From contig JBAZYR010000001.1 in assembly GCA_041659225.1 (NCBI GenBank), positions 98,087-162,086 of the forward strand: a stretch of 64,000 bases of DNA. The letters run 5' to 3'. The first letter of the stretch is position 1; each line of letters opens with the position of its first letter. The position numbers and the translations under genes are program-made. Below, one piece after another: positions 33,892 to 63,681 of the stretch. The stretch comes from Candidatus Staskawiczbacteria bacterium (GTDB lineage: Bacteria > Patescibacteriota > Minisyncoccia > Minisyncoccales > Staskawiczbacteraceae). The notes under the pieces are model-generated. The model saw only the letters and a list, made by a program, of their open reading frames with translations. It searched no databases and was not told the origin of the DNA.

Positions 33892-34492
33892 AAATTAGCG
33901 AAGGAATTTGTTTGATCAGATTATCAACCAAATCGAGTGTTTCTGTTTTTGTAAATTCTAAATTGTTGCGATCCAAAATTCTAACATGCTCATGCTTGCC
34001 CTCTAATTTCCTGCACTCCTGCCCGATTCTCTGGGCTCTTTGTTGTATGAAATCTGACTGCTCACTGATTCTCCCCCGTCTTGTAATGTTTTCCTGAATC
34101 TTCTGCCCGGGTGCCGTGAGCACTATAACTTTATCAGCTCTCAGATGTGAGTTTGCTTTAATCCATTTCCGTAAAATCGGTGGCGATTGTTTCCCGATTT
34201 CGGCATTGAGCCATGCTTCTAAAAGCAGGATATCGCCATCTACATAGCTTGTGATACCAATACCAGCGATGGCATGCGCTCGTTCTAACATTAATCTAGT
34301 ACGTTCAGCCAACCAATCATATCGTTGAGGAGTATCTATCTTATTATTTAAAACACTTAAAATAGTAGAAGTAAAAATACCCTCTTCTCCCTCTAAAAAA
34401 CTGGGGTTACAGTTACGACAGGCCATTTGTCGAGTAAGGAATGAAGTGCCCACACCAGGTGCACCTATAAAAGCGACTACTTCACCTTTCAT
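33875..34492 (-). CDS. P-loop NTPase-like protein (nucleoside/nucleotide-kinase-like) with degenerate Walker A
   Basis: N-terminal GAPGVGTSF has Thr where the canonical Walker A Lys sits. Start set at ATG 34492 because the ORF-track extension crosses tRNA-Ala. The 3' end overlaps the ABC gene start by 17 nt. Confidence 0.45.
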   Translation of the reverse strand: MKGEVVAFIGAPGVGTSFLTRQMACRNCNPSFLEGEEGIFTSTILSVLNNKIDTPQRYDWLAERTRLMLERAHAIAGIGITSYVDGDILLLEAWLNAEIGKQSPPILRKWIKANSHLRADKVIVLTAPGQKIQENITRRGRISEQSDFIQQRAQRIGQECRKLEGKHEHVRILDRNNLEFTKTETLDLVDNLIKQIPSLIYAKKY

Positions 34493-34540
34493 AATATTAT
34501 TTAAGATCACAACTAAAACCTCGACTTGATAAATCAAATG

Positions 34541-34611
34541 TGGACCTGGGGAGAATCGAACTCCCGTCTCCGCAATGCGAATGCGGCGTATTGCCACTAT
34601 ACTACGGGCCC
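34541..34611 (-). tRNA. tRNA-Ala (anticodon CGC)
   Basis: Acceptor gggcccg/caggtcc with G3:U70, anticodon stem ccgca/tgcgg, loop ttcgcat, T-arm gggag-ttcgatt-ctccc. Confidence 0.8.
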
Positions 34612-34775
34612 TAACTATGACAAATAGTACCATTTTTTATTCCGAAAAGAAAGATTCCTCTATTATATACCACACCTTGACAGACCCCCTCAGTTTGCTA
34701 TAATACTCTTACACTTCAAAAGCTGAAACAATGTATATTTTTCATTCACATATACCAATACATTTAAGCTTAAAA

Positions 34776-42052: not shown

Positions 42053-42400
42053 ATGAAAAAAACATTTGTAGTTCTTCTAATATCGTTAGCCCTATTTCCA
42101 ATTTTAGCTTCCGCTGCTATAGTTACTTGCGGTCCTAAGTGCGAACTTTCCGACGTATGCCCAACTATTGTGAATATTATAACTTTTATAAAGAATGAGC
42201 TTGTAGTTGCACTTGCTATTCTCTTTTTGACAATAGGCGGAATAGTCGTCTTAGCCTCCGGAGGAAGTCCTGAATTAAGGGGTTTAGGGAAAAAAATCGT
42301 AGTAACAACTATTATAGGAATGGCCCTAGCTTTTGCTGCTGGAACTATTATTGTCGAAATACTCAAAATATTGGGCTCAACGTATAATATTCAGTGTTAA
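42053..42400 (+). CDS. Stand-alone VirB2/TrbC-type (T4SS pilin-like) small membrane protein
   Basis: 115 aa: signal peptide (ILASA/A), Cys-containing segment, TM1, short polar loop GGSPELRGLGKK, TM2. The architecture matches the N-terminal modules of the genes at 57314, 61013 and 62542. Confidence 0.6.
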   Translation: MKKTFVVLLISLALFPILASAAIVTCGPKCELSDVCPTIVNIITFIKNELVVALAILFLTIGGIVVLASGGSPELRGLGKKIVVTTIIGMALAFAAGTIIVEILKILGSTYNIQC

Positions 42401-47667: not shown

Positions 47668-48759
47668 TTATTCCTGTACGTATTTCATTTGATACCCGAG
47701 CGGATATTTCGAGAAAGGATTTTTTGTACCAATGGTAGCAAAGTGCACGTGGCAGCCGGTAGAAATTCCTGCTCCGTCCATACCGGGCTGACCGCCGATC
47801 AAGCCAATTTTCTGTCCAACGTCAACTATATCGCCGGAATTAACAGCGATGTTCAGGAGATGCCCATAATAACTTACTACTCCGTCTTTATGTAAAATTG
47901 TAACAATATTACCGCCGCCAAAATTCCATCCATATTTTGCTTTTTGTACTACTCCCGCTGCTGCCGCAAAGATAGGCGTTCCGCATTTATTTGCAATATC
48001 AACTCCATTATACCAATGCAGGGTTTGTGTTATTATCCCCTGAGCTGGAAAGATAAAATAGTTATCAGCCAAATATGTTTGAGGAAATACCGGTGCCTTC
48101 TTGGGCATTACTCCATTCGGAACGACTAAAATATCACCGATGTAGACATCTGATTCATCAGCTAAGTCGTTTACCTCTAATATCTCATCTGCGCTTGCTT
48201 TGTATAACTTAGCGATTTCTTCTATGGTGTCACCTGATTCTGCTATATGGACTAGACCAGAAACTGGCAGAATAATAAGGGTTTGTCCATTTTTTATCTT
48301 TGAAGAACTAGACAGATCGTTGGACAGTAATAAAGTATTCAAAGAAACATCAAACTTCTCCGCAATTAATTTAAAAGTATCTCCTGATTGCACTGTATAC
48401 TCAACAATTTCCTTCCTTATCTGGGGACCCTGCCCGAAGATAGAACCCAAAACTTTCGAAGATAAAACCCTTGGCGGACAAAAGGCTGATAAACTGTCCC
48501 CTTGGATGATCTTTAACTCAGGCGGCTCTAGGCACAAAGTGCTGTTTTGATTCAAAAACAAAACCCCATCTCCAGAATCGACGGAGTCGTCGGAAACGGG
48601 GCTAATGAAGGCTTCGGCAGACTTTAAGGTTGTTTGCGGCCAGAGTATAGAATGAGGGAACCTGTTAATGCCGAAATACACTAAACCTAAAAGAATAATG
48701 GATAATAAGCTATAATAAAAACAAGGGGACTTAAAGAAACCCTTGAATACTGTCAACAT
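47668..48759 (-). CDS. Membrane-anchored LysM (x2) + M23 metallopeptidase
   Basis: LysM-like YTVQSGDTFKLIAEKFDVSLNTLLLSN and HIAESGDTIEEIAKLYKASADEILEVN. M23 motifs GVDIANKCGTPIFAAAAG and GCHVHF. Confidence 0.85.
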   Translation of the reverse strand: MLTVFKGFFKSPCFYYSLLSIILLGLVYFGINRFPHSILWPQTTLKSAEAFISPVSDDSVDSGDGVLFLNQNSTLCLEPPELKIIQGDSLSAFCPPRVLSSKVLGSIFGQGPQIRKEIVEYTVQSGDTFKLIAEKFDVSLNTLLLSNDLSSSSKIKNGQTLIILPVSGLVHIAESGDTIEEIAKLYKASADEILEVNDLADESDVYIGDILVVPNGVMPKKAPVFPQTYLADNYFIFPAQGIITQTLHWYNGVDIANKCGTPIFAAAAGVVQKAKYGWNFGGGNIVTILHKDGVVSYYGHLLNIAVNSGDIVDVGQKIGLIGGQPGMDGAGISTGCHVHFATIGTKNPFSKYPLGYQMKYVQE

Positions 48760-49933: not shown

Positions 49934-51772
49934 ATGTTTAAAACTATAATTGAAAAGTGTAAGTTTTATTTCGTTCTTATCAGCTGTCCAAAAAATCGCG
50001 AGAGCGGAGTCCTCGCCTCCTCCGTCGTATTCGGTCTAGCTACAGCGCTCGCCATAGGCCTTGGTATTTCATTCGCTTGGAGTTGGAAAGAAGAACTCGG
50101 AAAAATGACCCTAAGGGGAGTGATATGGTTGACGTTTTATCTTAGCCAGTGGGCTTTTGATTTTAGCGCCAGCCTGTTCAACTCAGTTGTTGTTTCTTCT
50201 GGAAACTCTATCACAGGGAACACTTTAGTTATACATGGCTGGACCATAGTTAGGGATTTTGCCAACATGTTTGTTGTTCTTGGTTTTGTAGTAGTCGGAA
50301 TCGCGACAATATTGAGAATGCGAGAGTATGAAGCTCAAAAAACCTTAGGACCCTTAATAATAGCTGCGATTTTGATCAATTTTTCTATGGTAATCTGTGG
50401 TGTGGCTATCGATGTGACCAATGTGACAATGGAATATTTTCTTAGTGCATCTGGGCCTGGCGGGGTTGTAGAGCCGCTGAGGGCTGCCGTTTTGAATCCG
50501 ATGCATGGGCCGGCGCTTCAGACACTTTCAGACACTGACAATTTCCCTGGGTTTTTAGTTTATGGCATGACTGTCTGCGCATTCGCGATCGTATCCACCA
50601 TGATCTTTTTACTTTATGGCGCACTTCTCCTTTTCCGCCCCGCTGCATTAATGTGTTTGGTAATTTTGTCACCATTGGGTATTGTTTCGTGGGTTTTTGC
50701 TGCGACAAAACCTTTTTACACTAAATGGCGAGATCAATTAATTAGCTGGTCTATTCTCGGCATCCCGACAGCGTTCTTTCTTTATCTCGCGGGCCATTTA
50801 GCAAATCGGACAGTAGTCGGAGGATCACCAACCGAAAGCTTGTATTCCTTTTTGACCGTTATTGGATTCTTACTAATCGGCTATACCTTTGTTTTCCAAA
50901 CCGGCGCCGTGGGTGCTTCCGCTATCACCGGCCTAGTCGCATCAGGCGGACGCTTTGCATCCGGGGCAGTAAGAAAAGGAGTAAAATATACAAAAGCTGG
51001 TGCCAAAGCTGGTGCAGGGGCAGCGGGCAGTCGACTTAAAGAGACAGAAGCTGGGCGGGCTGTAACCGGCGGATTCGGCAGAGCTATGGAGAGAATCGGC
51101 ATTTACTCTGAGGGAAGCACGGCGCAAAAAGAGCAGAAGAAAACTAAAGATGCCATTGATAGAGCTAAGGCGAACTACAAGGACAATCCAGATAGAGTAG
51201 TAAGGAATGCACAGGGCGGAGGGAGAACAACTAGGTCAGAGGACATAGAGGCAAGCGCCATTGTGGCGGCCCAAGAAGGGGCATTAGATATGAACGATGC
51301 CCGCATGGTGGCCCATTATCAGACAGCTGCTCAAAGCGGCAGATATAGCGCAGAGGAGATAAGGAAAGCGGAAACGAGGATGCCTGAACTTGCTCGACAC
51401 AACCGACCAGCGGTAGAAAGAATCCAGCGAAATAGTCCAACACCACTCACCGAAGCCGAAGCGGGAGACATGGCGGTCAGGAACACAATGGCTGGCCTGA
51501 GCGTTGGGGAAATAGGGAAACTATCTACAAATAGTATGAATATGCAATTCTTAGAAGCGACTAGAAGCAAAAAGTTAAATAAAGCTGATGCTGATGGAGT
51601 GCTGTCGCCACAGCAAGTAGCCCATTTGAAGCAATACACAACAGCCGGAACAGCGCAGGAGGCAGAGTTTACCAATAGAGTAAACCATTTGACCAGAGCT
51701 GGTGCCAGCCCAGAAGAACAAACCCAAGGTAGGGAATTAAAGAAAGTCGCCCTGGCCATCAATAATTTATAA
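49934..51772 (+). CDS. Polytopic membrane protein, VirB6/TrbL-like, with approx. 270-aa hydrophilic C-terminal tail
   Basis: About 7 hydrophobic helices in aa 30-340, then a Gly/Ala/Lys-rich and helical tail. Context next to PrgI/VirB4. The family assignment rests on architecture and context only. The start is uncertain. Confidence 0.4.
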   Translation: MFKTIIEKCKFYFVLISCPKNRESGVLASSVVFGLATALAIGLGISFAWSWKEELGKMTLRGVIWLTFYLSQWAFDFSASLFNSVVVSSGNSITGNTLVIHGWTIVRDFANMFVVLGFVVVGIATILRMREYEAQKTLGPLIIAAILINFSMVICGVAIDVTNVTMEYFLSASGPGGVVEPLRAAVLNPMHGPALQTLSDTDNFPGFLVYGMTVCAFAIVSTMIFLLYGALLLFRPAALMCLVILSPLGIVSWVFAATKPFYTKWRDQLISWSILGIPTAFFLYLAGHLANRTVVGGSPTESLYSFLTVIGFLLIGYTFVFQTGAVGASAITGLVASGGRFASGAVRKGVKYTKAGAKAGAGAAGSRLKETEAGRAVTGGFGRAMERIGIYSEGSTAQKEQKKTKDAIDRAKANYKDNPDRVVRNAQGGGRTTRSEDIEASAIVAAQEGALDMNDARMVAHYQTAAQSGRYSAEEIRKAETRMPELARHNRPAVERIQRNSPTPLTEAEAGDMAVRNTMAGLSVGEIGKLSTNSMNMQFLEATRSKKLNKADADGVLSPQQVAHLKQYTTAGTAQEAEFTNRVNHLTRAGASPEEQTQGRELKKVALAINNL

Positions 51773-51787
51773 TCCACCTCAATAAAT

Positions 51788-52321
51788 ATGCCTAAAAATA
51801 CTTCCATATATAGAGTATCTCTTCCTGACGACATTGACCTAATCGATACTATTGCCACAATTCTTCAAGAGAACGGCGTAAAAGAATCGGCTGAAGACGC
51901 TTATGATAAAATGAAGAGGGGTGAAAAATCTAGTATCGACTCGACTATAAAAATAATAAAACGGGCTGTATTGGGAGAAATTCCTCCAACTGATCTTGCA
52001 AAAAAAATAGAGGAGGAGTTAAAATTTTCAAACCCCATATCCGAAAAAATAGCGAATGGTCTAAAAGAGAAAATTATTTCTAGGGCAAAAAAGATTGAAT
52101 TTAATAAACCGGCGGAGACAAAGATGGTAGAAACGGATTTACAAAAAGAAACAGGTATAAAGGAAGACCAAATCGAGGTTAATAAAGTAGTTGAACGACC
52201 TGTGGAAAATCCGTTCCCAAAAAGATTAAAAAAAACAGAAACGACAGAAAAAAATAAAACAGCGAAACCGTCTGCGTCCAGAGGTGCAAATTCTGATACC
52301 TACCGAGAGCCGATCGAATAG
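51788..52321 (+). CDS. Hypothetical soluble protein
   Basis: 177-aa ORF, K/E-rich C-terminal half ending ...DTYREPIE. No motif recognised. Confidence 0.45.
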   Translation: MPKNTSIYRVSLPDDIDLIDTIATILQENGVKESAEDAYDKMKRGEKSSIDSTIKIIKRAVLGEIPPTDLAKKIEEELKFSNPISEKIANGLKEKIISRAKKIEFNKPAETKMVETDLQKETGIKEDQIEVNKVVERPVENPFPKRLKKTETTEKNKTAKPSASRGANSDTYREPIE

Positions 52322-52384: not shown

Positions 52385-53692
52385 TTATTGCTTCTTATTT
52401 CTCTTCTTCATTCTATCGTAAGCGGCATCTACTTCTGTCGGACCCATCTCCCACGGTTTCTTCTTGCTTTCCGAAGCACCGGAACCGGAACCGCCTCCAC
52501 CCGACGTTCCCTTACCGCTGTCTTCCCTTGACCTCCCCAAGATTTCCTTGAGCATGCCGCCGAGACCGAGCAAGTCGTTGCCTACGTCGGTTTTTGCTCC
52601 GCTGACATCAATAATCGTCTTGCTAGCCTTCCCTCGTTCAACCTGAAGCGTCTTAAGCGCCTCCTCAGGGCCGATTCCGAGATCTGTCCTAAGTTTTTTC
52701 ACACGGTCGCAAACATTGTCTATTTCCATCTTATCGGCGTCTCTTTCCCTCCTCTCTTTTTCTTCTAGCTCCGCCGCGTTAGCGACTTCGCCCTCCACCC
52801 TGACCTCGTTGACGGAAAACCTGAAAACCGTGATCCCAAGACTCTCTTCTCCGAAGTCTCCCTTGCCTTCACGCAGCCTTTTCACCTCTGATTTCCGCTG
52901 CCCTATCTCTCTTTTGAGATTCGACTGATCAGCGGGCGAGTAACCGTCGAAGATGGCTTTCAGTCCATCCCAGTTCCAGACCCCCGTGGTTTTGTCTTTA
53001 GACGCCCACCCATTTCGAGGAGTTGCGTCGTATTCGCTCGGTTCCGATTGAGGCTCTTCAAAGAACCTCATCCACGTGCCGGTGGGAATTGGACTATTAA
53101 CTGAAGACAAGGCGCTGCCCAAGAGGGACTTCACAAGCACTGCATGGACGTCATCCCTCATTCCCTGCGCTTCCATCCACGTAGATGGCCCTTCTCTGTT
53201 AGACGTTGCCCACGTTTTCACACGGTCCTCAATCGTATCCCGAAGGATCTTTTCAACTCCTGCTTGTCCTCCGGAATTAAGGTAAGTGATGTAAGATTCC
53301 GGCTTCTCTTTTATGCCGGGCATCCACGTTAGACTTTCTGAGACGGAAACCTCCGCCCGGTCTGGCGTCCGCACTCGTTGTGCCGGAAAGTCAGTATTAA
53401 TCTTCTCGACTTTTATCAGGGCAAAATCGAAAAGAAACGGACAGAGTGGAATCCAGTTCCATCCCTCATCCAGCACCACCCCCAGCCTCCGGCCCCAAAA
53501 CATAAGAATAGCCTTGTGGGGCGGTTTGGCCGGTATCTTCTGCAGAGCGTTATAAACAAACACATAAGCCAACGCCAGAAACGACACAGGCCCTAGCCAG
53601 AAACTGACCAAAGACAGAAGCGCAGAAACCACTGTGATCAGAACCAAAACCACGATTGTGAAATCTCTTCTCATCGTGAAATCTATTCTCAT
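52385..53692 (-). CDS. Membrane-anchored SPFH/band-7-like protein with long charged tail
   Basis: Two N-terminal TM helices, then ILMFWGRRLGVVLDEGWNWIPLCPFLFDFALIKVEKINTDFPAQRVRTPDRAEVSV, an SPFH-like pattern. Start at ATG 53692 with AAGGAG 6 nt upstream. Confidence 0.5.
   Translation of the reverse strand: MRIDFTMRRDFTIVVLVLITVVSALLSLVSFWLGPVSFLALAYVFVYNALQKIPAKPPHKAILMFWGRRLGVVLDEGWNWIPLCPFLFDFALIKVEKINTDFPAQRVRTPDRAEVSVSESLTWMPGIKEKPESYITYLNSGGQAGVEKILRDTIEDRVKTWATSNREGPSTWMEAQGMRDDVHAVLVKSLLGSALSSVNSPIPTGTWMRFFEEPQSEPSEYDATPRNGWASKDKTTGVWNWDGLKAIFDGYSPADQSNLKREIGQRKSEVKRLREGKGDFGEESLGITVFRFSVNEVRVEGEVANAAELEEKERRERDADKMEIDNVCDRVKKLRTDLGIGPEEALKTLQVERGKASKTIIDVSGAKTDVGNDLLGLGGMLKEILGRSREDSGKGTSGGGGSGSGASESKKKPWEMGPTEVDAAYDRMKKRNKKQ
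53657..53692 (-). repeat. Imperfect 18-nt tandem duplication at the 5' end of the SPFH-like gene
   Basis: 16 of 18 nt are identical. It encodes MRIDFT / MRRDFT and so gives two in-frame ATGs. Confidence 0.8.
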
Positions 53693-53855
53693 CGCGTTCT
53701 CCTTTTGTTTTTCACTCGATATTGAGTTGTTAATGCACAGAATATCCAAAGACACATTGCCTTCAGAATTATCTATATTATATATTATATCTACCTCTTT
53801 GTCAAGTTTTCCCTTCCCCTCTCCACAGCTCGCTTTACTGCTTGACTTTCCTTTG

Positions 53856-53892: not shown

Positions 53893-54306
53893 ATGGAACA
53901 ATACCCGGTTCCTCAATTTATTGATGCCGAGGCAAGAATGGCTTTCTTTTTAACCGTCCGTCAATTCATATACGTCATTGTCGCCGGCGGCATAATCTTT
54001 ATTCTCTTTTATGTTCTTCCTTTCTATCTTTTTGTTATTGCCGCCCTAATTGTAGGTGGATCCGCTATTGCGCTAGGGTTTATAAAAATCCAAGGAATTC
54101 CATTGCTGGAAATAATGTTAAACTCCTTTGGATTTGCTATGGGATCGAAAAGTTATACATGGAAGAAAAAGGAATCTCTTTATCCTTTTAAGGTGATAAA
54201 AAAAGCGGAAATTAGAAAAATTGAAACTGACAAAGCACTAAAGATCGGCGAGAAGAGTGGCTTAAAAAAATTAAGGACAAAAGTAGAGCTACAAATTAAA
54301 AACTAA
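53893..54306 (+). CDS. prgI: PrgI-family (VirB3-like) T4SS membrane protein
   Basis: YPVPQFIDAEARMAFFLTVRQFIYVIVAGG..., two TM helices, then ...SKSYTWKKK. This matches the PrgI-family pattern. Confidence 0.7.
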   Translation: MEQYPVPQFIDAEARMAFFLTVRQFIYVIVAGGIIFILFYVLPFYLFVIAALIVGGSAIALGFIKIQGIPLLEIMLNSFGFAMGSKSYTWKKKESLYPFKVIKKAEIRKIETDKALKIGEKSGLKKLRTKVELQIKN

Positions 54307-54312
54307 TAACCC

Positions 54313-54981
54313 ATGCCTGAAATATCTACACAAGATTTTTTAGAAATAAAAGATATAAGAGAGGGGGTGTTAATTCTGAAAGACCGAAGCCTCAGATCTG
54401 TTTTAATGGTTTCTTCTTTAAATTTCGCCCTAAAGTCAGAGGAAGAACAGACTGCAATTGTCTACGCCTTCCAAACGTTTTTAAACAGTTTGGATTTTTC
54501 CTGCCAGATTGTTATTCAGTCGAGGAACATAAATATTACACCTTACCTTGACGAGCTAAAGGACTTAGAAGAGAGGCAGGTGAACGAACTACTTAAGGAA
54601 CAAACTGCAGCTTACCGTGAGTTTATAAAACAGCTAGTGCAAGGAGAGACCATCATGACAAAAAACTTCTACGCGGTGGTGCCATACACATTGATGGAGG
54701 CTCTCGGCATAAGCGCAGTCACAAGGAAATTTAGTTTAAAAGAGTTATTTGGTAAAAAAACTGAACAAAAAGCAGCGGAGCTAGCTGATGCTGACTTTGA
54801 AAGATGCAAAACGCAGTTATGGCAGAGGATGGAATTCATGGCCATGGGATTAAGACGATGCGGATTAGAAAGTATTCCGCTGACAACACCGGAACTCATC
54901 GAACTTTTCTGGACAATTCATCACCCAGAACAGGCAGAAGTCGGCTACTATCCAGAAATATTACCGGAGCTTATAAAATAA
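54313..54981 (+). CDS. Hypothetical T4SS-associated protein resembling a VirB4-type N-terminal domain
   Basis: DFLEIKDIREGVLILKDRSLRSVLMVSSLNFALKSEEEQTAIVYAFQTFLNSLDFSCQIVIQS looks like the N-terminal region of Gram-positive VirB4 homologues. No NTPase motifs. Confidence 0.35.
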   Translation: MPEISTQDFLEIKDIREGVLILKDRSLRSVLMVSSLNFALKSEEEQTAIVYAFQTFLNSLDFSCQIVIQSRNINITPYLDELKDLEERQVNELLKEQTAAYREFIKQLVQGETIMTKNFYAVVPYTLMEALGISAVTRKFSLKELFGKKTEQKAAELADADFERCKTQLWQRMEFMAMGLRRCGLESIPLTTPELIELFWTIHHPEQAEVGYYPEILPELIK

Positions 54982-54992
54982 ACGCCATAATA

Positions 54993-56813
54993 ATGAAATT
55001 CGAACTGCCGTTTTTCAAAAAGAAAGAAGAAGATCTCACGGGAGAAAAGATATTTGAGCAAGAAGCTCTTGACGTACGGGATATAATAGCTCCCCCGTAT
55101 ATTGGCGTAGAACAAGATCACTTAAAACTAGGGGAAAGATTAAGCAGTTCCTTCTTTATCTTTTCTTATCCGAGATATTTAAATACTGGATGGTTGTCGC
55201 CGGTGATTAATTTGAACACTCCGATGGATATTTCCTTCCATATTCACCCGGTTAGCACAGAAATGATTCTTAAAAAACTTAGGAAGAAAATCACTGAAGT
55301 TTCTTCTGAGATATTGGAGAGAGAAGACAAGGGTCTGGTCCGTGACCCAGCGCTCGAAGCAGCTTTCCAAAATATCGAGGCACTAAGAGACTCCCTACAA
55401 ACAGCTCAAGAAAAAATGTTCCGCTTTGGGCTGTATATTACAATCTACGAAAGCACTAAAAAAGCGCTGAAGGATACTGAGATGACACTGAGATCTATCT
55501 TTGAATCACGCTTAATATATATTAAGCCTGCACTCTTTAAGCAGCGAGAGGGCTTCATCTCGTGTAATCCATACGGATTAGACCTTACAAACGTCCACAT
55601 TCCGATGGATACTGCGCCCCTATCAACCGCCTTTCCTTTTATCTCTTTTGATTTAAGCTCTGCCGAAGGAATCCTTTATGGTGTTAATCGCCATAATAAT
55701 TCCCTTGTCTTATTTGATAGGTTTAGTTTAGAAAATGCGAATTCCGTAGTCTTTGCAAAAGCAGGTTCCGGTAAATCTTATGCGATAAAATTGGAAATTC
55801 TCCGTTATCTAATGCAAGGGATAGATGTAATCGTTATTGACCCAGAAAACGAGTATGAGGCCCTTGCTGACGCCGTAGGAGGGTCGTTCTTTAAGATCTC
55901 TTTAACTTCTCCCCACCAACTAAATCCCTTCGACCTGCCGATACCAGGAGACGACGAAAGTAAGGAGGACATATTAAGATCTAATATCATTAACCTGGTG
56001 GGGTTGCTAAGGATCATGTTGGGCGGATTAACGCCAGAGGAGGATAGTATCATTGACCAGGCCTTAAGCGAAACATACGCAGTTCACGATATCACCCCAG
56101 AGTCAGACCCGAAAACATGGCAAGAGAATATTCCAGTGATGTCTGATTTTGAAGAAATATTAGAGAGTATGACAGGGACTGAGTCATTGGCAAAAAGAAT
56201 AAAGAAATTTACAAAAGGAACTTATGCTGATTTCTTCAATCAGCGGTCTAACATAACCATGACAAAAAATATGGTTGTGTTCGGCATAAGAGATATGGAG
56301 GAAAGTTTAAGGGCCATGGCTTTGTATATTATTATGCGATACATCTGGAATATAATCAGGTCTAATTTAAAAAAGAGAATATTGATTATAGATGAGGCTT
56401 GGTGGATGATGCAAACGGCCGAAGGAGCTTCGTTCTTATTCGGTCTGGCCAAACGTGCCCGTAAATACTGGCTTGGCGTAACAACTATCACTCAAGACGT
56501 TGCTGATTTTATGAAGTCAGAGTATGGACAACCGATTATTACAAATTCGTCAATGACGCTATTGCTTAAACAATCGCCCGCCACTATTGATATCGTTAAA
56601 CAAGTTTTCAATATGACAGACCAGGAAAAATATATTTTGCTGGAAGCCGCGGTCGGAGAAGGGATTTTCTTTGCCGGGAAAAAACATGTTGCCATATCTA
56701 TTGTCGCTAGCTCCACCGAAAACAGAATCATTACAACAGCTCCCGAAGAGGTCTTAAGGATGAGAAAAGAAAAGAAAGAAGTCCAGCTGGGTGAGATAAA
56801 AGAAGTGATTTAA
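54993..56813 (+). CDS. virB4: VirB4/TraE/PrgJ-type T4SS ATPase
   Basis: Walker A FAKAGSGKSYA, Walker B RILIIDEAWWM, and GVTTITQD. Start set at ATG 54993 (MKFELPFF). Confidence 0.85.
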   Translation: MKFELPFFKKKEEDLTGEKIFEQEALDVRDIIAPPYIGVEQDHLKLGERLSSSFFIFSYPRYLNTGWLSPVINLNTPMDISFHIHPVSTEMILKKLRKKITEVSSEILEREDKGLVRDPALEAAFQNIEALRDSLQTAQEKMFRFGLYITIYESTKKALKDTEMTLRSIFESRLIYIKPALFKQREGFISCNPYGLDLTNVHIPMDTAPLSTAFPFISFDLSSAEGILYGVNRHNNSLVLFDRFSLENANSVVFAKAGSGKSYAIKLEILRYLMQGIDVIVIDPENEYEALADAVGGSFFKISLTSPHQLNPFDLPIPGDDESKEDILRSNIINLVGLLRIMLGGLTPEEDSIIDQALSETYAVHDITPESDPKTWQENIPVMSDFEEILESMTGTESLAKRIKKFTKGTYADFFNQRSNITMTKNMVVFGIRDMEESLRAMALYIIMRYIWNIIRSNLKKRILIIDEAWWMMQTAEGASFLFGLAKRARKYWLGVTTITQDVADFMKSEYGQPIITNSSMTLLLKQSPATIDIVKQVFNMTDQEKYILLEAAVGEGIFFAGKKHVAISIVASSTENRIITTAPEEVLRMRKEKKEVQLGEIKEVI

Positions 56814-56837: not shown

Positions 56838-57317
56838 ATGGGAATTTTTCCATCTCCAGGGACATTAACAAAAAAGGGCATGCTCATGATCTTATCAGTT
56901 CCTGAGGGGATCATAATGCTGATTACCGCGCTGATACTAGATGGATGTGGCTTAGTATTATTCGTACTAAGTCTTTTTGGCATTGGGATACCTTTTTCAT
57001 TTCTGCTCGATTTAGCCGGAGCTACTAGCATCGGGATATTTACTCTCACCAGCGGAATTGTAAAAAACGCTGTAGGGAATATAGCTGGAAAAGCTGGAGA
57101 AGCTATGGCAGGCAGCAACGGAGGAGAGGAAGGAGCCGCGGGGAAAGCTGGAAATATGGCAACCGGAGTTGCTAAAAAAGGCGCGCGGGTAGGGCTAGGA
57201 ATCACTCGTTTTATCATAACCTTTTTTATTGAGCTTATCCCCTTTATCGGCGACATATTCCCCACCTGGACACTTTGCGTTATTTTTACTTTAATTGAAG
57301 AGCAAGCATTGTCATGA
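56838..57317 (+). CDS. Hypothetical small membrane protein with Gly/Ala-rich loop
   Basis: Four hydrophobic segments. Its stop overlaps the next start (ATGA at 57314), which suggests translational coupling. Confidence 0.45.
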   Translation: MGIFPSPGTLTKKGMLMILSVPEGIIMLITALILDGCGLVLFVLSLFGIGIPFSFLLDLAGATSIGIFTLTSGIVKNAVGNIAGKAGEAMAGSNGGEEGAAGKAGNMATGVAKKGARVGLGITRFIITFFIELIPFIGDIFPTWTLCVIFTLIEEQALS

Positions 57318-60300
57318 AACTCAAAAAAAGATTACTATTTTTCTTTTGTGTAACTTTACTACTGAAAGCGGGCGCTGTTTTTGCTTCCGAAACTCCGGAA
57401 CTCGGCGGGCTAGATTTGACCAACATGATAGTTTATTTCTTTAATTTTCTTTTGTCAGCAGCGATTGGATTATCTGTCCTGGCAGTGGCCCTGGGAGGAA
57501 TCTATCATCTGATATCCCTAGGGTCCGGCAAGATGATCGGAGAGGGCAAGGCATGGGTAAAGGCAGGAATTTTAGGGTTATTAATTGTTATGTCTTCTTA
57601 TTTAATAATCTGGACCATTAATCCCGACCTTGTCACAATAAAAATAGCTAAACTATGGGGTCTTATACCTGTACCGGTAATCACGATTCCACCCCCGGGT
57701 CCGTTTGGACCATCGGCTGGAGCATTTGAAGAAATTCCTATAGGGATGCTGACTGAAAGGCTTTTATCGCGAACTTCGTATTGTTACGATTTTGGGGAAA
57801 ATGGCGATCCTATCGATGGCGATTTAGAAACAGATATCATGGAACCGACTTTTTTCCCAAATCATGACAGATTAGATTGTCTCTCAAAACTTGAAGAGGC
57901 TGCTGAGAGAAAAGCGAACATAGTCAAACAATTATCTAATGAAATAATAACATTGATGAGCGAGTGCAAATGTGGCGGACAGGAGGACATAAAGGAAGAG
58001 TGCTCGGCTCCGAGCGTAAATTCACTTGCGAATAGCGCGCCCATTAATGAACTAAAAAATAGAACATCATTCATTGCACGACTGGCTTTAGCAAAAAGCC
58101 AAAACACTCCCATAAGCCTAGCGGCGGAAGATCCTCCGTGTACCCCAGACGAAGTTAAGGCGTGCGACTCATGCTCTGCAAAGCAGTGCGATGCAGATGG
58201 GAAATGGGGCAGTTGCGTAGATTTTGATTTTTCCATGACTGTCGTAGAGATTCCGCCCGTGACCGTAGGCAAACCAGTAACTGCATATATAAATATAACT
58301 AAGGTATCTCCTTCTTGGGTTCCATCGGCATCCGTTTCCCTGACCTTCTCGGGCGCACCATCCGGAAGCTCTATAACACCGACGAAATGCTCTCCAAATT
58401 GTTCTGCAACAATGACTATTCCCACCGCAGGTATAAAACCGCAGGATAAATACAATGTCCTTATTAAAGGAAGCGCCTGCGGTCTTCACAGAAGCGTGAA
58501 CGCGTATTTTAAAATATTACCGGGACCGCCGGTGGGATTAACCGCCACATCGATTTTAGGTGACCGCTATTTAATAACATGGAAAAAGGGAGAGGGCGCT
58601 GAAAAAACAAGGATTCTTAGATCCATAGATGGAACAAGCAAAGAAATATATTTCGGCACAGAAGAATATTTTATCGATTCCGGGCTTACTCCTAATAAAC
58701 TGTACTGTTATGAAGCGGCGAGTTGGGCTCCGACAAATAATTGGTCTGAGAAAGTTACAACGAACTGCGTTTGTTCAGAAATTTTTAGACCCAGCCAGTG
58801 CCAGACAAATTTCAAAGACAAGTGTAAATATTGGCAGATAACTCAGGACCCAAGCACCTGCGACACTGGCGCCTGTGAAGGTAATGACGGACGCTGCGAG
58901 TGCAATATTAATCCATTATGCAACCCTCCGTGCCCGCCGGGAAACAAAGAAAAAGCAGCCCATGGTCCAATAACCTTTAATTCGTGCGAAGGCGCAGAGA
59001 AAGACCCTTCAAAGGAAAAAGTATACAAGGGGCTAGATGAGTTCAAGGTTGATTTGATTGAACTGATTGAAAAAGTTGGGAAAGAAAAAGTCTGTAAAGG
59101 TATATGCTCTACCTTGAAGTACGGCTTTGACGGATGCCAGGAATTCTGCGAGGGGCTAAGTCCCAAAGAAATTTCCGAACAATACGATGCGGACACTGTC
59201 GTTACGGCGCTCATCGAGAGTGATATATGGAAAACAACATTAGAGGGAAAAGAGGTGGACATACCTGTTATTAATAAAGAGATTTGGGACACCATACCCC
59301 TAGTAGCGCAAATAAAATATTTTAACGGGAAAATAAAGTCTCAGAAGGCCGGAATTGACACCGACCTAAACAATCTATACGAAGTCGAGAACAAACTCGC
59401 AGGCTGCTACGCACCAAAATCCTATCTAGGTTTATTAAGACTAATGCAACAAAATAGCAATATAACAGTCGGGGGTGCCTCCGGTGATATTTCTAAATAT
59501 TGCAAAGGATTCGGACACAATGACGGGATATTCAATCTATGCCAAAAGATATGTCCGGCTATTAACAAAACTTCATTCGCATCGCTGAGATCCTGCGGCG
59601 GCGATGCTGATTGCGCAAAGACGGAATTCTATAAATGTCCGGAAGATAACGATCTCGGGGTTGAAACATTCAAGGAGTGTTTGACAACAGCAGCAGAGCA
59701 ATGCAAAACATCCTGTCAAAATGAATATCCGAATTGTGAAGACGCGCTTAAGGGTTGTGAAGATGCTTGTGAGACCGACTCGGAATATCTTTTTGAAAGA
59801 GATGAAATTAATGTTAATTTCGGGCAAGTCGCGCAATGTGCAAAAGACCACGATATTTTTGAAGACTTTGTAAAATGCATGGAATCAACAATCCCCATGT
59901 ACTGCACAAGCCAATATCCTGGATACCCGGATTGCCGAGTCGAACCACCTTTAAAAGAAGATGAACCGTCTACATCTTTGTATTTTTATCAAAACCCCGA
60001 ACGACATAAAGACTACCTAAGTACTTTTGTCGTTCCGAATAAAGTTTCCCCCGTCTACCCTGAAAGCAAAAAATGCCCATTCTTTTCGATGTGCCCACAA
60101 TGTCCATATAAAGACAAGGAATTTGACGAAAAAGGCCTTTTTTGTAACGCCGATTGTATGGACTTTTCATATAACGACGACCCGTTAACTTTTTATTGCA
60201 GGACATCGTGGGCCCCTGAGTTTCTCCCGGAAAACTATGGATGGACATGCTCGGCAAATAATGAAATCCCCGTCGGCCAAACAGTTGATGAGGCTGAAAA

Positions 60301-60970
60301 GTGGGGAAAGGATATGTCTGAAAAAACAGGCAAGTTCATCGAGACCCTATCTAAAATGATAAAAGACATGGATACTATAGGCGAACAAAAAGACTATTGT
60401 GAATGTAATAGTATTTGCAAAATAGAGAAAAAAGACGATCCTCCGATAACGGATCAAGAGAGGTGGGATCTCGAAAAAACATGTAACGCAAAATGCGAAT
60501 ACAATGAAAGGCACGTTCAGGGCACTGACCCTGACACGGGCATGAGTTACGACTACTGGGTATGCTATTGTGCCCAGAAACCCTGCGAAGGGAATCCGTG
60601 CCAAAAGATTATTAACATGCTAGCAGGAAAGGATGGAGCTGCTAAATGCCCGGAGGGGACAGAATATAAAGGAATGTTTTGGTTTCATGAAGAAATTAAA
60701 AAAACGCTGACGGAATCCGATGAATTAATAAAAAAGGGCAGATCTGAACCATTGAAAAGATTGGCTTACTCACGAGATAGGATGGATGAATGCGGCGCAT
60801 TATCCACGGAATATGGCGCAAAAACAATGGAGCCATTAGATTGTACTACTTCCTACTTCAGCACACACACTATAAAGGAAAGGTGCTATGGCATATTAGA
60901 GGGCATCGTGCGCGACCCGAGCGAAAACCTTCTAGACAATTGGTTCTGTTGTTCTGCACCAGTCCAATAG
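57314..60970 (+). CDS. Giant pilin-module fusion: signal peptide + VirB2-type two-TM module + approx. 1100-aa Cys-rich ectodomain (Ig-like and FN3-like segments)
   Basis: aa 1-106 carry a signal peptide, TM1, loop SLGSGKMIGEGKAWVK, TM2 and TINPDL. An FN3-like segment reads PPVGLTATSILGDRYLITWKKGEGAEKTRILRS...LYCYEAASWA. The mature part contains dozens of Cys residues. Confidence 0.6.
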   Translation: MKLKKRLLFFFCVTLLLKAGAVFASETPELGGLDLTNMIVYFFNFLLSAAIGLSVLAVALGGIYHLISLGSGKMIGEGKAWVKAGILGLLIVMSSYLIIWTINPDLVTIKIAKLWGLIPVPVITIPPPGPFGPSAGAFEEIPIGMLTERLLSRTSYCYDFGENGDPIDGDLETDIMEPTFFPNHDRLDCLSKLEEAAERKANIVKQLSNEIITLMSECKCGGQEDIKEECSAPSVNSLANSAPINELKNRTSFIARLALAKSQNTPISLAAEDPPCTPDEVKACDSCSAKQCDADGKWGSCVDFDFSMTVVEIPPVTVGKPVTAYINITKVSPSWVPSASVSLTFSGAPSGSSITPTKCSPNCSATMTIPTAGIKPQDKYNVLIKGSACGLHRSVNAYFKILPGPPVGLTATSILGDRYLITWKKGEGAEKTRILRSIDGTSKEIYFGTEEYFIDSGLTPNKLYCYEAASWAPTNNWSEKVTTNCVCSEIFRPSQCQTNFKDKCKYWQITQDPSTCDTGACEGNDGRCECNINPLCNPPCPPGNKEKAAHGPITFNSCEGAEKDPSKEKVYKGLDEFKVDLIELIEKVGKEKVCKGICSTLKYGFDGCQEFCEGLSPKEISEQYDADTVVTALIESDIWKTTLEGKEVDIPVINKEIWDTIPLVAQIKYFNGKIKSQKAGIDTDLNNLYEVENKLAGCYAPKSYLGLLRLMQQNSNITVGGASGDISKYCKGFGHNDGIFNLCQKICPAINKTSFASLRSCGGDADCAKTEFYKCPEDNDLGVETFKECLTTAAEQCKTSCQNEYPNCEDALKGCEDACETDSEYLFERDEINVNFGQVAQCAKDHDIFEDFVKCMESTIPMYCTSQYPGYPDCRVEPPLKEDEPSTSLYFYQNPERHKDYLSTFVVPNKVSPVYPESKKCPFFSMCPQCPYKDKEFDEKGLFCNADCMDFSYNDDPLTFYCRTSWAPEFLPENYGWTCSANNEIPVGQTVDEAEKWGKDMSEKTGKFIETLSKMIKDMDTIGEQKDYCECNSICKIEKKDDPPITDQERWDLEKTCNAKCEYNERHVQGTDPDTGMSYDYWVCYCAQKPCEGNPCQKIINMLAGKDGAAKCPEGTEYKGMFWFHEEIKKTLTESDELIKKGRSEPLKRLAYSRDRMDECGALSTEYGAKTMEPLDCTTSYFSTHTIKERCYGILEGIVRDPSENLLDNWFCCSAPVQ

Positions 60971-61012: not shown

Positions 61013-62512
61013 ATGCAAAATTCAAAGTTAAAATACCTATTTCTAAGTATTCTGATCACCTTCGCTCTATTACAGGGCAGTTATTGCTCGGCAAGAGTTC
61101 TTGAAGTTCCTGGGTTACCGGGTATAACCGACCAATCAACCCTGCCACAATATGTTGTGGCTATCTTCAGCTATATAATGGGCATTGGAGTAACTCTGGC
61201 TTTTTTGTTTTTACTAATCGGCGTTGTCCAGTATATGACTTCAGCGGGAAGGACTGAAGCGATAAGCAACGCTAAAAGCAGAATAAAAAGTGCTATATTG
61301 GGATTATTCCTAATGCTTTCTTCTACTATTATTCTAGTCACTATCTCGCCTGAGTTAAAAAATATTAAAATTGAAACACTCAAACCAGTCCCTGGAACGA
61401 TTAAATTAATAAAGGGGGAAGAAGTAAGAACATTCCCAACGATAATGGGCGACACAAGCAATATTGCAGACTACACAATATCTTGGCCATCAACGATTGA
61501 TGGACAACCTAACTGCTTATTCGATGCTTCCGGCAAACAAATAAATGCTACTTATGTTATCTACCCATATGACGAAGTAGGGTTTAAAAAAATAAAAGCC
61601 GAGACAAAACGCATAAAGTGCGGTGAGAGTACCTCAATCTATTTCGCATCTTATACGAGCGCCATGGAGCAACCCGGAGTTTACTTTTTCCCTGGTGCTG
61701 ATTGTGGCCTTATTGCGCCAGGCTCTTCGGAGGGCAGTTTACCACGGTTTTTCGGACAGATAACTATTGATAATTGGAACGGCGATCGCATGAACTCGAT
61801 AAGAATAGTTAATGGAGATGACCCCAGCAAAGGACCGTTTTATGGCATGCTCATTTTTAAAGGAGTAAACCAAACTACTTCTGAAACGGGCGTGGAGGAT
61901 TGGCAGAGCTTAGAACCTTGCGGAGATTTTAATTGTCTTGGTAGAACCAGGGAGTCGACTTGCCTGGGAATGGGAATACTTGAGGGATCTTCATTCACTA
62001 TATACCCCTGGGTTGGCTATGATAGCTCTGGAAAAGTTGCAAGCGCTGGCAGCGGGATAGAAATGCGGACGAGACCCAGTTGGCTAGGCGGCAGATTTTT
62101 AATTTCTGATATTGATATCCGGGATAAAGGATATCTGCAGGTTGAGCCAGGAGATTATGAGCCAGACTATTCTGGCGCTGATGTCCCAGACGAAGAGCAA
62201 GACCTTTGCCCTGATTTTGGATACCAAACTTCCGGAGATAATCACCACTGTCTTAATTCTCTCCATATTTTGGGGAATTATATTGTATTATTTTCTGATA
62301 GCAAAGAAGCCGGTGTTGTAGATGCTGATGCACAACGCTTCCCGATCTCTAGGGCGCTATTAAAGGACACGCAAGGAGTATACAACGGCTATGACCCAGC
62401 CAACGGGCCAAGGGACCTAACCAAAGATTGGTATTACAATGACTGTACCCTTGGAAAATGTAATCACGAGGATTGGCTTACAATAATTCCTTTAGCGAAC
62501 AAAATTCCGTAA
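61013..62512 (+). CDS. Pilin-module fusion protein with approx. 380-aa ectodomain
   Basis: Signal peptide, LPQY, TM1, loop TSAGRTEAISNAKSRIK, TM2, TISPEL. The ectodomain is paralogous to the next gene (SLHILGNYIVLF versus SIRILGDYIVSL). Confidence 0.6.
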   Translation: MQNSKLKYLFLSILITFALLQGSYCSARVLEVPGLPGITDQSTLPQYVVAIFSYIMGIGVTLAFLFLLIGVVQYMTSAGRTEAISNAKSRIKSAILGLFLMLSSTIILVTISPELKNIKIETLKPVPGTIKLIKGEEVRTFPTIMGDTSNIADYTISWPSTIDGQPNCLFDASGKQINATYVIYPYDEVGFKKIKAETKRIKCGESTSIYFASYTSAMEQPGVYFFPGADCGLIAPGSSEGSLPRFFGQITIDNWNGDRMNSIRIVNGDDPSKGPFYGMLIFKGVNQTTSETGVEDWQSLEPCGDFNCLGRTRESTCLGMGILEGSSFTIYPWVGYDSSGKVASAGSGIEMRTRPSWLGGRFLISDIDIRDKGYLQVEPGDYEPDYSGADVPDEEQDLCPDFGYQTSGDNHHCLNSLHILGNYIVLFSDSKEAGVVDADAQRFPISRALLKDTQGVYNGYDPANGPRDLTKDWYYNDCTLGKCNHEDWLTIIPLANKIP

Positions 62513-62541: not shown

Positions 62542-63681
62542 ATGAGTATAAAAAAAATTTATCTTTTCCCGGTAATCACCCTTTTCCTCCTTTCCTTCGC
62601 TGGTTTTTGCACCGCGGCAACTCTTGAGGTTAATTACCCGTCAATTCCAGGGGGAAGTATATCTGGGAATGCAGGTCTCCCCGAATATGCTTTATATGTA
62701 TACAAATTTGGCATGTTGTTTGGTTTTTTGGTGGCAGCCCTTTCGCTCGTCATCGCAGGTATCTACTATATCTTTTCAGCTGCAGTGCCATCGGCCAGGG
62801 CCTCAGCCAGAGATCGTTTAATGGGCACAATTACTGGAACAATCCTTTTGTCGTTAGTTTATCTAATTGTCGTAACGATTAATCCTGAATTAAGTATTTT
62901 CAGAGCTCCTAATCCTGTACCCATTAAAGTAACTACATTCAAGCCAATGTTTTCTGGTGTAAACCTTTATAAAGAAAAGGGCTGCGTCGAATCATCGGCA
63001 TATTCCTCAATTCCAATAACTTCAAGTATTCAAGACCTTATTGATTTTAAAAGAACTTTGAGATCACTAAAAATTACCCCCGATACAAATCAAAATATTT
63101 TGTACTTTGCCCTTACCCATGGCTTAACCAATTTTAAAGGGGAATGCCAGTACTTTTGGAATAATGGTCCATGCGAGAATGTAGATCCATTTTCTTCAAT
63201 AACTATTTATCAATTCGAAGAAAATCCCAAGGGGAATGGGGTTACTTTCTACAGAGAGCCATTTTTCGACGCAGCGGGCGGGTCCAAAACGATAACCAAT
63301 GACGAAATAAAAAACGAAGGGGTTTATAACGGCGAACTTAAAAATTTGACATTTGCCGATAACGACGGAAAATGCACTGTTCCAGAAAGCAAACAAGATT
63401 GCAAGAAATGGGACAAAAAAGGGGAAAAATGTTTAGAACGGACTTGCCCGAACTTAGTTGGAAAAAATATAGGCTCCATAAGAATTCTGGGCGACTATAT
63501 CGTGTCCCTCCTTTATTGGGACCCCATCATCACCGGAAGCAACGAGAAATGGATTGCCTGCCAAATGTTTCCCACAGTTGATGACGTAAACAAGAAAGGA
63601 CCAATACAGTTAAAATGGGAGTATATTTTGACGCGCGATAATTTACCTAACTGGGTCGTAATATTCCCGATAAGAAAATAA
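62542..63681 (+). CDS. Pilin-module fusion protein with approx. 260-aa ectodomain
   Basis: Signal peptide, LPEY, TM1, loop SAAVPSARASARDRL, TM2, TINPEL, then a Cys-containing ectodomain. Confidence 0.6.
   Translation: MSIKKIYLFPVITLFLLSFAGFCTAATLEVNYPSIPGGSISGNAGLPEYALYVYKFGMLFGFLVAALSLVIAGIYYIFSAAVPSARASARDRLMGTITGTILLSLVYLIVVTINPELSIFRAPNPVPIKVTTFKPMFSGVNLYKEKGCVESSAYSSIPITSSIQDLIDFKRTLRSLKITPDTNQNILYFALTHGLTNFKGECQYFWNNGPCENVDPFSSITIYQFEENPKGNGVTFYREPFFDAAGGSKTITNDEIKNEGVYNGELKNLTFADNDGKCTVPESKQDCKKWDKKGEKCLERTCPNLVGKNIGSIRILGDYIVSLLYWDPIITGSNEKWIACQMFPTVDDVNKKGPIQLKWEYILTRDNLPNWVVIFPIRK

Follow-up and report, generated by a model that had tools for sequence, protein, structure and literature searches.

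A pilin-anchored, cysteine-rich protein family encoded behind virB4 in Candidatus Staskawiczbacteria: a candidate host-contact scaffold of a type IV secretion system

The locus described here raises the question of which function may be served by a protein of 1,218 amino acids (aa) that begins like a VirB2-type pilin, continues as a large cysteine-rich domain and is encoded behind the virB4 gene of a type IV secretion system (T4SS). It lies in a stretch of 64,000 nucleotides from a Candidatus Staskawiczbacteria bacterium (NCBI GenBank assembly GCA_041659225.1, contig JBAZYR010000001.1, positions 98,087 to 162,086 of the forward strand), referred to as the window in the following. All coordinates are window positions; the gene in question, for brevity the big gene, occupies 57314..60970 on the + strand. 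An earlier note on this DNA had described its product as a pilin-type anchor with immunoglobulin-like (Ig-like) and fibronectin type III-like (FN3-like) segments and a long cysteine-dense part of no known family, and had proposed it as a candidate tip adhesin. This architecture proved correct, so that the observation is confirmed, and its interpretation is supported in part. Our analysis favours, with moderate confidence, the big gene as encoding a surface-displayed host-contact scaffold, i.e. a minor or tip pilin, of an oriC-adjacent, Gram-positive-type Patescibacteria T4SS similar to those of mating-pair formation class FATA (MPF-FATA). Patescibacteria, which may account for much of the diversity of bacteria, are for the most part attached to host cells, and the family would provide a concrete candidate for a host-contact element in one of their clades: it is invariably located after virB4, predicted to be extracellular and fast-evolving, and appears to combine a rigid scaffold with swap-in modules.

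The literature on T4SS of Patescibacteria (PMC12102498, PMC10633639, PMC12857230) describes systems of MPF-FATA ancestry in which TrsD, PrgI and VirB4 are encoded together, often near dnaA, with arrays of 2-11 divergent VirB2-like genes near virB4; neither a relaxase nor a recognisable adhesin was found there. TrsD is given as typical of these systems, and a survey of 3,035 genomes detected no T4SS adhesins (PMC12102498). In S. epibionticum, the sole species tested genetically, both T4SS and pilin array are essential for the host-attached way of life (PMC10633639).

The gene and its N-terminal pilin module

The big gene is a single uninterrupted open reading frame (ORF) with an ATG start that overlaps by 4 nucleotides the stop codon of an upstream ORF for a small membrane protein of 159 aa (56838..57317, + strand; 133 aa if the start at 56916 is used). 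The same 1,218-aa protein, 100% identical, is found on four contigs from different sources, ENA and Logan among them (the protein is listed under NCBI, JGI, Logan and ENA); one of the contigs is a contig of 785 kb from a Candidatus Staskawiczbacteria genome. With an uninterrupted ORF and identical copies of the protein on separately assembled contigs, the gene is not an artefact; together with the full-length alignment of relatives, this disposes of several genes, a frameshift or a mis-assembly as explanations, the first two of which had been named in the earlier note as what could overturn its claim. The protein contains 69 cysteines (5.7%), one of them (C12) in the signal peptide and 68 thereafter. 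None of the other non-overlapping ORFs that reach 90 aa (55 in the window in all) is as rich in cysteine, and most stay below 2%. A scan of the operon for promoters and terminators yielded counts close to the shuffled expectation.

Hydrophobic segments of the big protein begin at aa 5, 35 and 80. A Sec-type signal peptide can be read from the sequence at aa 1-24 (57314..57385, + strand), with C12 inside it and a putative cleavage site between MKLKKRLLFFFCVTLLLKAGAVFA and SE; a helix equivalent to it is present in the AlphaFold2 (AF2) model of the homologue P0003. The signal peptide is followed by a VirB2/T4SS_pilin-like helical hairpin (57416..57631, + strand; assigned by BLASTP), composed of a first transmembrane helix (TM1, aa ~35-66), a short lysine-rich, basic loop (GKMIGEGKAWVK), a second transmembrane helix (TM2, aa ~80-103) and the motif TINPDL. 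A proline-rich, flexible linker (aa ~107-137, IPVPVITIPPPGPFGPSAG; 57632..57724, + strand) connects the hairpin to the remainder of the protein, and the equivalent segment of P0003 (residues 122-143) displays a low predicted local distance difference test score (pLDDT). In the P0003 model, two long helices (49-84 and 90-116) precede this low-confidence linker, after which the ectodomain core begins.

Sequence similarities of the hairpin point to three further proteins of the window. The closest match is the N-terminus of pil499 (BLASTP E=1e-14), a protein of 499 aa (61013..62512, + strand) that joins a T4SS_pilin N-terminus (PF18895, E=1.1e-9, 38.6 bits, above the cut-off) to an unrelated ectodomain. 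The second is pil379 (E=7e-7), a third pilin fusion of 379 aa (62542..63681, + strand), which is recognised by this similarity to the pilin module and by its conserved position. The third is a stand-alone TrbC/VirB2 pilin of 115 aa with four cysteines (42053..42400, + strand; PF18895 E=2.8e-7, PF04956 E=1.2e-5), matched at E=1e-5. Across related loci the module shows a median identity of 42%, with invariant Gly, Trp and TINP residues. On these sequence grounds, the N-terminal module clearly belongs by homology with the T4SS_pilin/VirB2 superfamily, despite the fact that the query stays below the Pfam cut-off. About 45% of family members carry a cysteine in TM2 where the query has a serine, which is uncorrelated with the parity of the cysteine count. 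The 115-aa pilin, which is encoded ~11.5 kb upstream of PrgI, outside the main T4SS cluster and between the genes of tRNA-Arg and tRNA-Lys, is a candidate for the major pilin.

Both termini of VirB2 and TraA pilins are located outside. As the hairpin would share this N-out/C-out topology, the C-terminal ~1,080 aa of the big protein are predicted to be extracellular. The C-terminus itself (...DNWFCCSAPVQ) displays no LPXTG-type sorting motif, and no adhesin domain of Pfam was found, so that the protein does not present itself as a PrgB-type adhesin.

Conserved core, variable zone and cysteines

An exhaustive hidden Markov model (HMM) search with a profile of the ectodomain only revealed a family of 246 representatives (at 50% identity) at E<=1e-3, 161 of them at <=1e-30. 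A word-indexed search had found six relatives and a word-index profile search just 2 proteins, low-complexity and FN3 words having probably swamped the candidate list of the latter. Family statistics were drawn from 152 proteins, i.e. the 150 best HMM matches and those found earlier, and 117 of these are at least 900 aa long. Among the 117, the median cysteine content is 6.5% (range 3.4-8.6%), and 113 display N-terminal hydrophobic segments. All named members are annotated as "hypothetical protein". No known family was matched in Pfam (whole protein, and nine segments at E<=10), NCBIfam or PHROGs, and a sequence-profile search of the PDB returned a chance match only (E=0.74). Together with the fold searches described below, these results leave the big protein free of the clear homology to a characterised family that the earlier note had considered as a second way in which its claim might fail. 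When one genome of each GTDB species was scanned for a sequence pattern, 42 related loci were obtained, nearly all of them from Candidatus Staskawiczbacteria or from metagenome-assembled genomes (MAGs) labelled generically as Patescibacteria or "Saccharibacteria"; two lie on short contigs of gammaproteobacterial and archaeal bins and are taken as binning errors.

Alignments of the ectodomain with 6 and with 74 members display a conserved core that is discontinuous, comprising aa ~138-232 and ~536-1218. The N-proximal part (57725..58009, + strand), delimited by alignment and model, is marked by the motifs EIPIGxLTE, CYDF and DRxDC, a long helix and LMxxCKC. Its occupancy over the 74 relatives is ~1.0 at an identity of 40-58%, its pLDDT is 89-98, and its cysteines C157, C189, C218 and C220 are kept in 97-100% of the relatives.

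The two parts of the core are separated by a variable insertion zone (aa ~233-535; 58010..58918, + strand), recognised by an alignment occupancy below 0.35 and by low AF2 confidence. In the family, CKC (aa 218-220) and YKGLDEF (aa 571-577), the motifs that flank it, lie 56 to 730 aa apart (median 105 aa); in the query they are separated by 351 aa. The Ig-like segment (aa ~305-398; 58226-58507, + strand) falls into this zone, modelled with 6-7 beta strands at a pLDDT of ~55 (52-59). Ig domains provide the sole Foldseek matches of the query model in the PDB (E 0.02-0.1), and the Pfam family Big_3_5 is matched below threshold (E=0.023). The FN3-like segment (aa ~404-480; 58523-58753, + strand) is assigned by homology: it matches residues 802-881 of the relative P0002 at E=2e-12, and this stretch of P0002 spans positions 2-78 of the 84 positions of the fn3 profile at E=0.006, below the cut-off. 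The segment itself has no fn3 match in Pfam, reaches Pur_ac_phosph_N only at E=0.13 and is modelled at a pLDDT of 30-40. Support for both assignments is moderate. A small cysteine-dense stretch (aa ~485-540, + strand) completes the zone. Because the Ig-like and FN3-like segments are situated inside the variable zone, they mark an insertion and not the start of the ectodomain; to judge from the alignments, they are a lineage-specific insertion in the core. The statement that the cysteine-rich part follows them is thus correct for the long cysteine-dense region behind them and incomplete in front, where the core is likewise present at aa ~138-232.

The content of the variable regions differs among relatives, which hold repeats of fn3, PKD and Pur_ac_phosph_N. 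A zincin motif HExxHxxGxxD, with D as third ligand, is found in nine of them (P0011, P0012, P0014, P0022, P0029, P0037, P0039, P0052 and P0070), and maps to the variable zone in all seven motif carriers present in the alignment. Peptidase_M23 domains occur in P0077 (aa 271-313) and P0074 (aa 672-713), one within the variable zone and the other further along. Because relatives carry zincin motifs or M23 domains, the same scaffold displays lytic modules in other species.

The larger part of the core (aa ~536-1218; 58919..60967, + strand; delimited by the alignments) is cysteine-rich and modelled as a mixed alpha/beta domain with long helices and CX3C ladders, at a pLDDT of mostly 85-98. Signature motifs are YKGLDEF, SKYCxGF, NDDPLTFYC, EIPVGQTVDxAEKW, DYCxC, CxGNPCQ, RSxxLKxLxYSR and DNWFCC, and lineage-specific insertions are found at aa 586-635 and 1036-1060. 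Several non-cysteine residues, including E, D, R and W, are invariant, and several core helices reach 30-48 residues in the models. Two AF2 models were built with the 74-sequence alignment. For the query ectodomain, the mean pLDDT is 74 and the predicted template modelling score (pTM) 0.75, with the core mostly at the values given above; for P0003, a full-length homologue poor in inserts, the mean pLDDT is 85 and the pTM 0.80, with block means mostly above 80 over residues 147-942. Foldseek comparison with 350,542 PDB chains matched neither model at E<=1e-3 (best E=1.1 for P0003, which has no Ig insert), and the query model matched nothing in BFVD. Within the reach of PDB and BFVD, the modelled core thus probably represents a new fold or architecture, and the family adds a large, confidently modelled domain with no structural relative in the PDB. 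An internal duplication of the stretches of the form EIP[IV]G...helix...CxC (aa 139-220 versus 983-1035) was considered and dropped, as BLASTP gave no alignment. A relation of the core to the ectodomains of pil499 and pil379 was rejected as well (hhalign probability <1%).

At an overall column identity of just ~30%, 45 of the 68 ectodomain cysteines are kept in at least 80% of the 74 relatives. The family framework comprises ~57 cysteine columns, and ten cysteines conserved in the family are missing from the query. Losses occur in pairs: C1160 and C1212 are jointly missing in 9 relatives and never singly, C698 and C962 jointly in 3 and C842 and C855 jointly in 2, again never singly, while C979 and C1213 are lost together in 10 sequences and singly in 1, and C761 and C767 together in 12 and singly in 2. 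These losses are mutually independent, as 1160/1212 and 979/1213, for example, are missing from different sequences. The spacing of the cysteines is equally regular. They are often found at positions i and i+4 (also i+8 and i+12) on successive helices, which is the geometry of disulfide-stapled helical hairpins. In the query, this arrangement is seen in a helical subregion at aa ~730-875 (59501..59938, + strand; delimited by cysteine spacing and by helices at ectodomain residues 651-669 and 674-693), with C797-x3-C801 and C815-x3-C819 on consecutive helices; in P0003, C508, C512, C516 and C520 form a ladder on one helix. CX3C on helices and CxC are the dominant spacings of the query, which contains only two CxxC motifs and 10 histidines in 1,218 residues.

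The ectodomains of pil499 and pil379 contain an even number of cysteines in 49 of 52 orthologues, and such even counts are a signature of organisms that oxidise exported cysteines. An MdbA-like oxidoreductase family is reported to be enriched in the candidate phyla radiation (CPR), often beside VKOR (bioRxiv 10.1101/335083). Because of the pairwise loss, the CX3C ladders, the few CxxC motifs and histidines, the even counts of the paralogues and the oxidoreductases of CPR bacteria, we read the cysteines of the big protein as probable structural disulfides (~30) and not as metal sites; the formation of the bonds is inferred from this sequence pattern. A second exported protein may be mentioned here, encoded at 12128-14644 on the - strand: it has 838 aa, 34 cysteines, an N-terminal hydrophobic segment and four tandem repeats of ~25 aa of the form CGDG(S/T)CxGxExCxxCxxDCGxC, with weak matches to PG_binding_1 (E=0.005) and a PHROG endolysin family (E=0.004). 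This repeat protein suggests that the organism makes further disulfide-repeat surface proteins. In the light of the enrichment of MdbA and VKOR, the even paralogues and this second protein, the remark in the earlier note that such a cysteine-rich exterior is unusual for bacteria appears overstated for the CPR lineage. Heavy use of extracellular disulfides in a lineage without a respiratory chain raises the question of how the bonds are made.

Host contact, machine part or enzyme

The position of the big gene is highly conserved. In the 42 species-level loci (tblastn; judged where the contig of the related locus was long enough), the order VirB6-like protein, PrgI, TrsD, VirB4, big gene, pil499, pil379, Jag/YidC and DnaA is near-invariant, and the big gene follows VirB4 in essentially all loci with the flank present. 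In the window, the ORF of the small membrane protein lies between the two. This coupled small membrane protein, as the earlier note called it, is real here; it is detected in only 7 of the 42 related loci and is no conserved partner. The upstream machine genes of the window comprise a polytopic membrane protein of 612 aa presumably in the VirB6 position (49934..51772, + strand; seven hydrophobic segments, no Pfam match, position kept in 20 loci), a PrgI/VirB3-like protein (53893..54306, + strand; PF12666 E=3.2e-8), a TrsD-like homologue of the VirB4 N-terminal domain (54313..54981, + strand; NCBIfam TrsD E=1.3e-4 and VirB4 N-terminal matches) and a VirB4-like ATPase of the CD1110 family with 606 aa (54993..56813, + strand; NCBIfam NF045971 E=1.4e-108, Pfam P-loop_TraG). 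On the other side, convergent jag-yidC-rnpA follow pil379, and dnaA-dnaN, the replication origin region, lies just past the 3' end of the window; in at least 22 related loci the T4SS and pilin array abuts these genes in the same manner.

Conservation of sequence differs strongly along this order. Median identities of related loci to the proteins of the window are 77% for VirB4, 76% for DnaA, 71% for TrsD and 51% for PrgI, and, besides the 42% of the pilin module, 38% for pil379 and 28% each for pil499 and the ectodomain of the big protein. With medians of 28% versus 71-77%, sequence change has been much faster in the exposed parts than in the cytoplasmic machine, with the cysteine framework retained. 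Because identity does not exceed ~47% even for the closest relatives, synonymous sites are saturated, and divergence was gauged as identity relative to VirB4 and DnaA.

Based on this dataset, we hypothesize the following mechanism. The Sec signal peptide and the VirB2-type hairpin would place the big protein in the membrane such that the C-terminus faces outward. As the same hairpin serves as a handle in pil499, pil379 and the 115-aa pilin, one machinery probably acts on all four proteins. The ectodomain would then form a conserved scaffold of ~800 aa held rigid by ~30 disulfides, with CX3C rungs linking neighbouring helices in many cases. Its variable zone would hold the Ig-like, FN3-like and small cysteine-dense segments here and arrays of FN3 and PKD or zincin motifs in relatives, with M23 domains there or elsewhere, and the scaffold might thereby present interchangeable modules for binding or lysis to the host envelope. 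The resulting host-contact element may be either a minor pilin, placed at the pilus tip or base, or an adhesin anchored in the membrane next to the channel. Since a domain of ~120 kDa per subunit would sterically misfit a VirB2-type helical filament, incorporation, if any, would be sub-stoichiometric; such use is favoured, with the 115-aa pilin as possible major subunit. The notion of a tip adhesin thus appears plausible in view of the predicted extracellular topology, the fixed position after virB4, the fast divergence of the ectodomain and the swap-in modules; tip location and binding are proposed. In a bolder and more doubtful version, the disulfide-laddered core, of a kind not described before, might cap the T4SS pilus in these monoderm CPR bacteria as a stand-in for VirB5, nucleate the filament with pil499 and pil379, and present cassettes for host range or for breaching envelopes.

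Several observations weigh against the preferred host-contact scaffold. The big protein itself has no Pfam match at E<=0.1 and hence does not reach the PF18895 cut-off (26.6 bits); matches to this family appear in 6 of 36 long family members, all of them below the cut-off (P0002 with 23.9 bits, P0080 with 21.1 bits). Cysteine counts in the family of the big protein are not biased toward even numbers. They are odd in 56 of 74 members with the alignment boundary, in 52 of 89 with the hydrophobicity boundary and in 19 of 34 genome loci, the query being even (68), and not all cysteines of the family may be disulfide-bonded. One unpaired cysteine, an intermolecular bond, or noise of boundaries and gene calls are possible causes. 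Cysteine parity as proof of full pairing, which works for the paralogues, fails for the big-protein family and depends on the set and the boundary, and was abandoned as an argument; the p-values of these counts also take no account of relatedness among the sequences. No DsbA/VKOR-type gene was found within the window by a CxxC screen of all ORFs and Pfam searches of seven motif-carrying ORFs, which bears out what the earlier note had said about oxidative folding, even if a DsbD_2 (CcdA-like) fusion is present at 35304-37091. A domain of ~120 kDa on every subunit is sterically hard to fit in a VirB2-type helical filament, and the strongly constrained core and the fixed position suit a structural part of the machine equally well. 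Finally, host binding, surface or tip location and incorporation into a pilus are inferred properties.

This leads to the main rival, a structural, envelope-spanning part of the T4SS and not an adhesin, which we consider unlikely, the enzyme and metal readings being weaker still. The hairpin would dock at the VirB6/VirB3/VirB4 translocon, and the core would oligomerise as a stalk, cap or conduit through cell wall and S-layer, replacing parts of the VirB5/VirB8 type undetected in Patescibacteria. A single copy immediately behind virB4 in essentially every related genome, the conserved core architecture with its ~57 cysteine columns and the long core helices (30-48 aa) would all fit such a part, as would a pilin module whose median identity and invariant residues exceed what a plain anchor needs. 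In addition, S. epibionticum is reported to lack a structural homologue of VirB8 (PMC12102498). However, divergence of the ectodomain far outpaces that of the machine parts, and the ectodomain tolerates an insertion zone of 56-730 aa with binding and lytic modules, which is typical of outward-facing proteins. The family is moreover found almost only in Staskawiczbacteria or in the generically labelled Patescibacteria and Saccharibacteria MAGs, whereas this type of T4SS is phylum-wide, and in its fold the core resembles neither VirB5, VirB8 or VirB10 nor any other T4SS structure of the PDB.

An anchored enzyme or effector appears improbable. It might act on the own or the host envelope, for example as a replacement of a wall hydrolase of the VirB1/PrgK type, possibly with a catalytic free cysteine. 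The position of the big gene corresponds to that of the PrgK/TcpG-type hydrolases after VirB4 in MPF-FATA loci; some relatives carry M23 or zincin modules, the frequent odd cysteine counts would permit one unpaired cysteine, and invariant residues other than cysteine include E, D, R and W. Yet the query contains no peptidase, SLT, CHAP or M23 module or motif by which a VirB1/PrgK-type protein would be recognised, M23 being confined to the relatives P0074 and P0077. The core is without sequence or fold similarity to any hydrolase, the enzymatic modules are optional inserts in a minority of members, and a separate LysM-M23 peptidase is encoded nearby (47668-48759). That the cysteines are metal or cluster ligands of an extracellular metal-binding or redox protein seems very improbable: the high cysteine density, a habitat that is probably anoxic or low-oxygen water, the lack of a DsbA/VKOR gene in the window and the copper-handling genes found there would suit it, but cysteine losses affect independent pairs and not sets of 3-4, CX3C and CxC spacings dominate over two CxxC motifs, histidine is rare, the paralogues are even, MdbA-like oxidoreductases are reported as enriched in CPR bacteria, often beside VKOR, and no similarity to any metalloprotein was found.

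Comparison with known systems and further features of the window

The locus resembles the arrays of VirB2-like proteins (PF18895) of Patescibacteria in the combination of a signal peptide with a two-helix module (Wang et al. 2023, PMC10633639; Quinonero-Coronel et al. 2025, PMC12102498). Three tandem genes directly downstream of PrgI-TrsD-VirB4, the location beside dnaA/oriC and the high divergence of paralogues and orthologues are further common features. In the same texts, VirB2 homologues are treated as small pilins, whereas the pilin module amounts to only ~10% of the big protein, and the parts available of PMC10633639 and PMC12102498 describe neither a C-terminal ectodomain of ~1,100 aa nor a cysteine-rich family. 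T4SS of Patescibacteria with pilin arrays are thus known, while a giant cysteine-laddered fusion with a cassette zone is undescribed in the literature examined, within the limits of the text available.

Likeness to VirB5 is confined to the proposed role, i.e. that of an exported T4SS protein encoded with pilin genes and acting distally in contact with the target, and to the long helices of both; no similarity of sequence or fold is found (Pfam, NCBIfam, Foldseek against the PDB with the best E of 1.1 for P0003). VirB5 has ~220 aa, is not fused to a pilin and is not cysteine-rich. TraN, which stabilises mating pairs in F-type systems, is a closer parallel in its logic: a cysteine-rich accessory T4SS protein at the surface, with a conserved cysteine framework and variable regions for receptor contact. 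Yet TraN, although cysteine-rich and surface-exposed as well, is an outer-membrane protein of diderms without a pilin module. Neither the whole protein nor its segments matched any family in Pfam or NCBIfam, and no TraN structure is among the Foldseek matches listed; the likeness is one of functional logic. Minor pilins of the CofB/TcpB type from type IVb pili follow the same principle of a pilin N-terminus with a big C-terminal domain, present in low copy at the tip; they belong to the type IV pilus superfamily and not to the VirB2 type, and no homology is seen, as gauged by fold searches only. As for the cysteines, the two pairs C797/C801 and C815/C819 recall the twin CX3C/CX9C hairpins of small Tim and CHCH proteins, where two disulfides staple two helices. 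These are proteins of ~10 kDa in the mitochondrial intermembrane space, unlike the ladders of up to four cysteines per helix inside a bacterial ectodomain of ~800 aa.

Among the genes of the T4SS locus itself, the longest ORF of VirB4 (669 aa from 54804) overlaps TrsD, while the gene calls on the source contig let VirB4 start at 54993. TrsD as a split or frameshifted piece of VirB4 was considered and rejected; TrsD has a gene of its own, in line with reports on Patescibacteria. In the window, the VirB6-like gene is separated from PrgI by an ORF of 177 aa with no family match (51788-52321) and by a gene for an SPFH/Band-7 membrane protein on the - strand (52385-53755), which is found at the equivalent place in just one related locus (L006, tblastn).

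The DsbD_2 fusion mentioned above (35304-37091, + strand) combines HMA, DsbD_2 and cupredoxin-like parts and lies beside a CopA-type P-type ATPase with two HMA domains (37327-40263, + strand); the two are probably a copper-handling pair. No other thiol-redox membrane protein was detected in the window, and the fusion is a reductant transporter and not an oxidase.

Two tRNA genes deserve mention. A tRNA-Ile with the anticodon UAU (tat) is called by both ARAGORN and Rfam at 5005-5077 (+ strand); in most bacteria, AUA is read by a lysidine-modified CAU tRNA. A tRNA-Ala (CGC) at 34540-34611 (- strand) overlaps the 5' end of the longest ORF of an AAA_28-like gene (33875-34633, - strand), and because of this overlap the true start of the AAA_28-like gene is placed further downstream.

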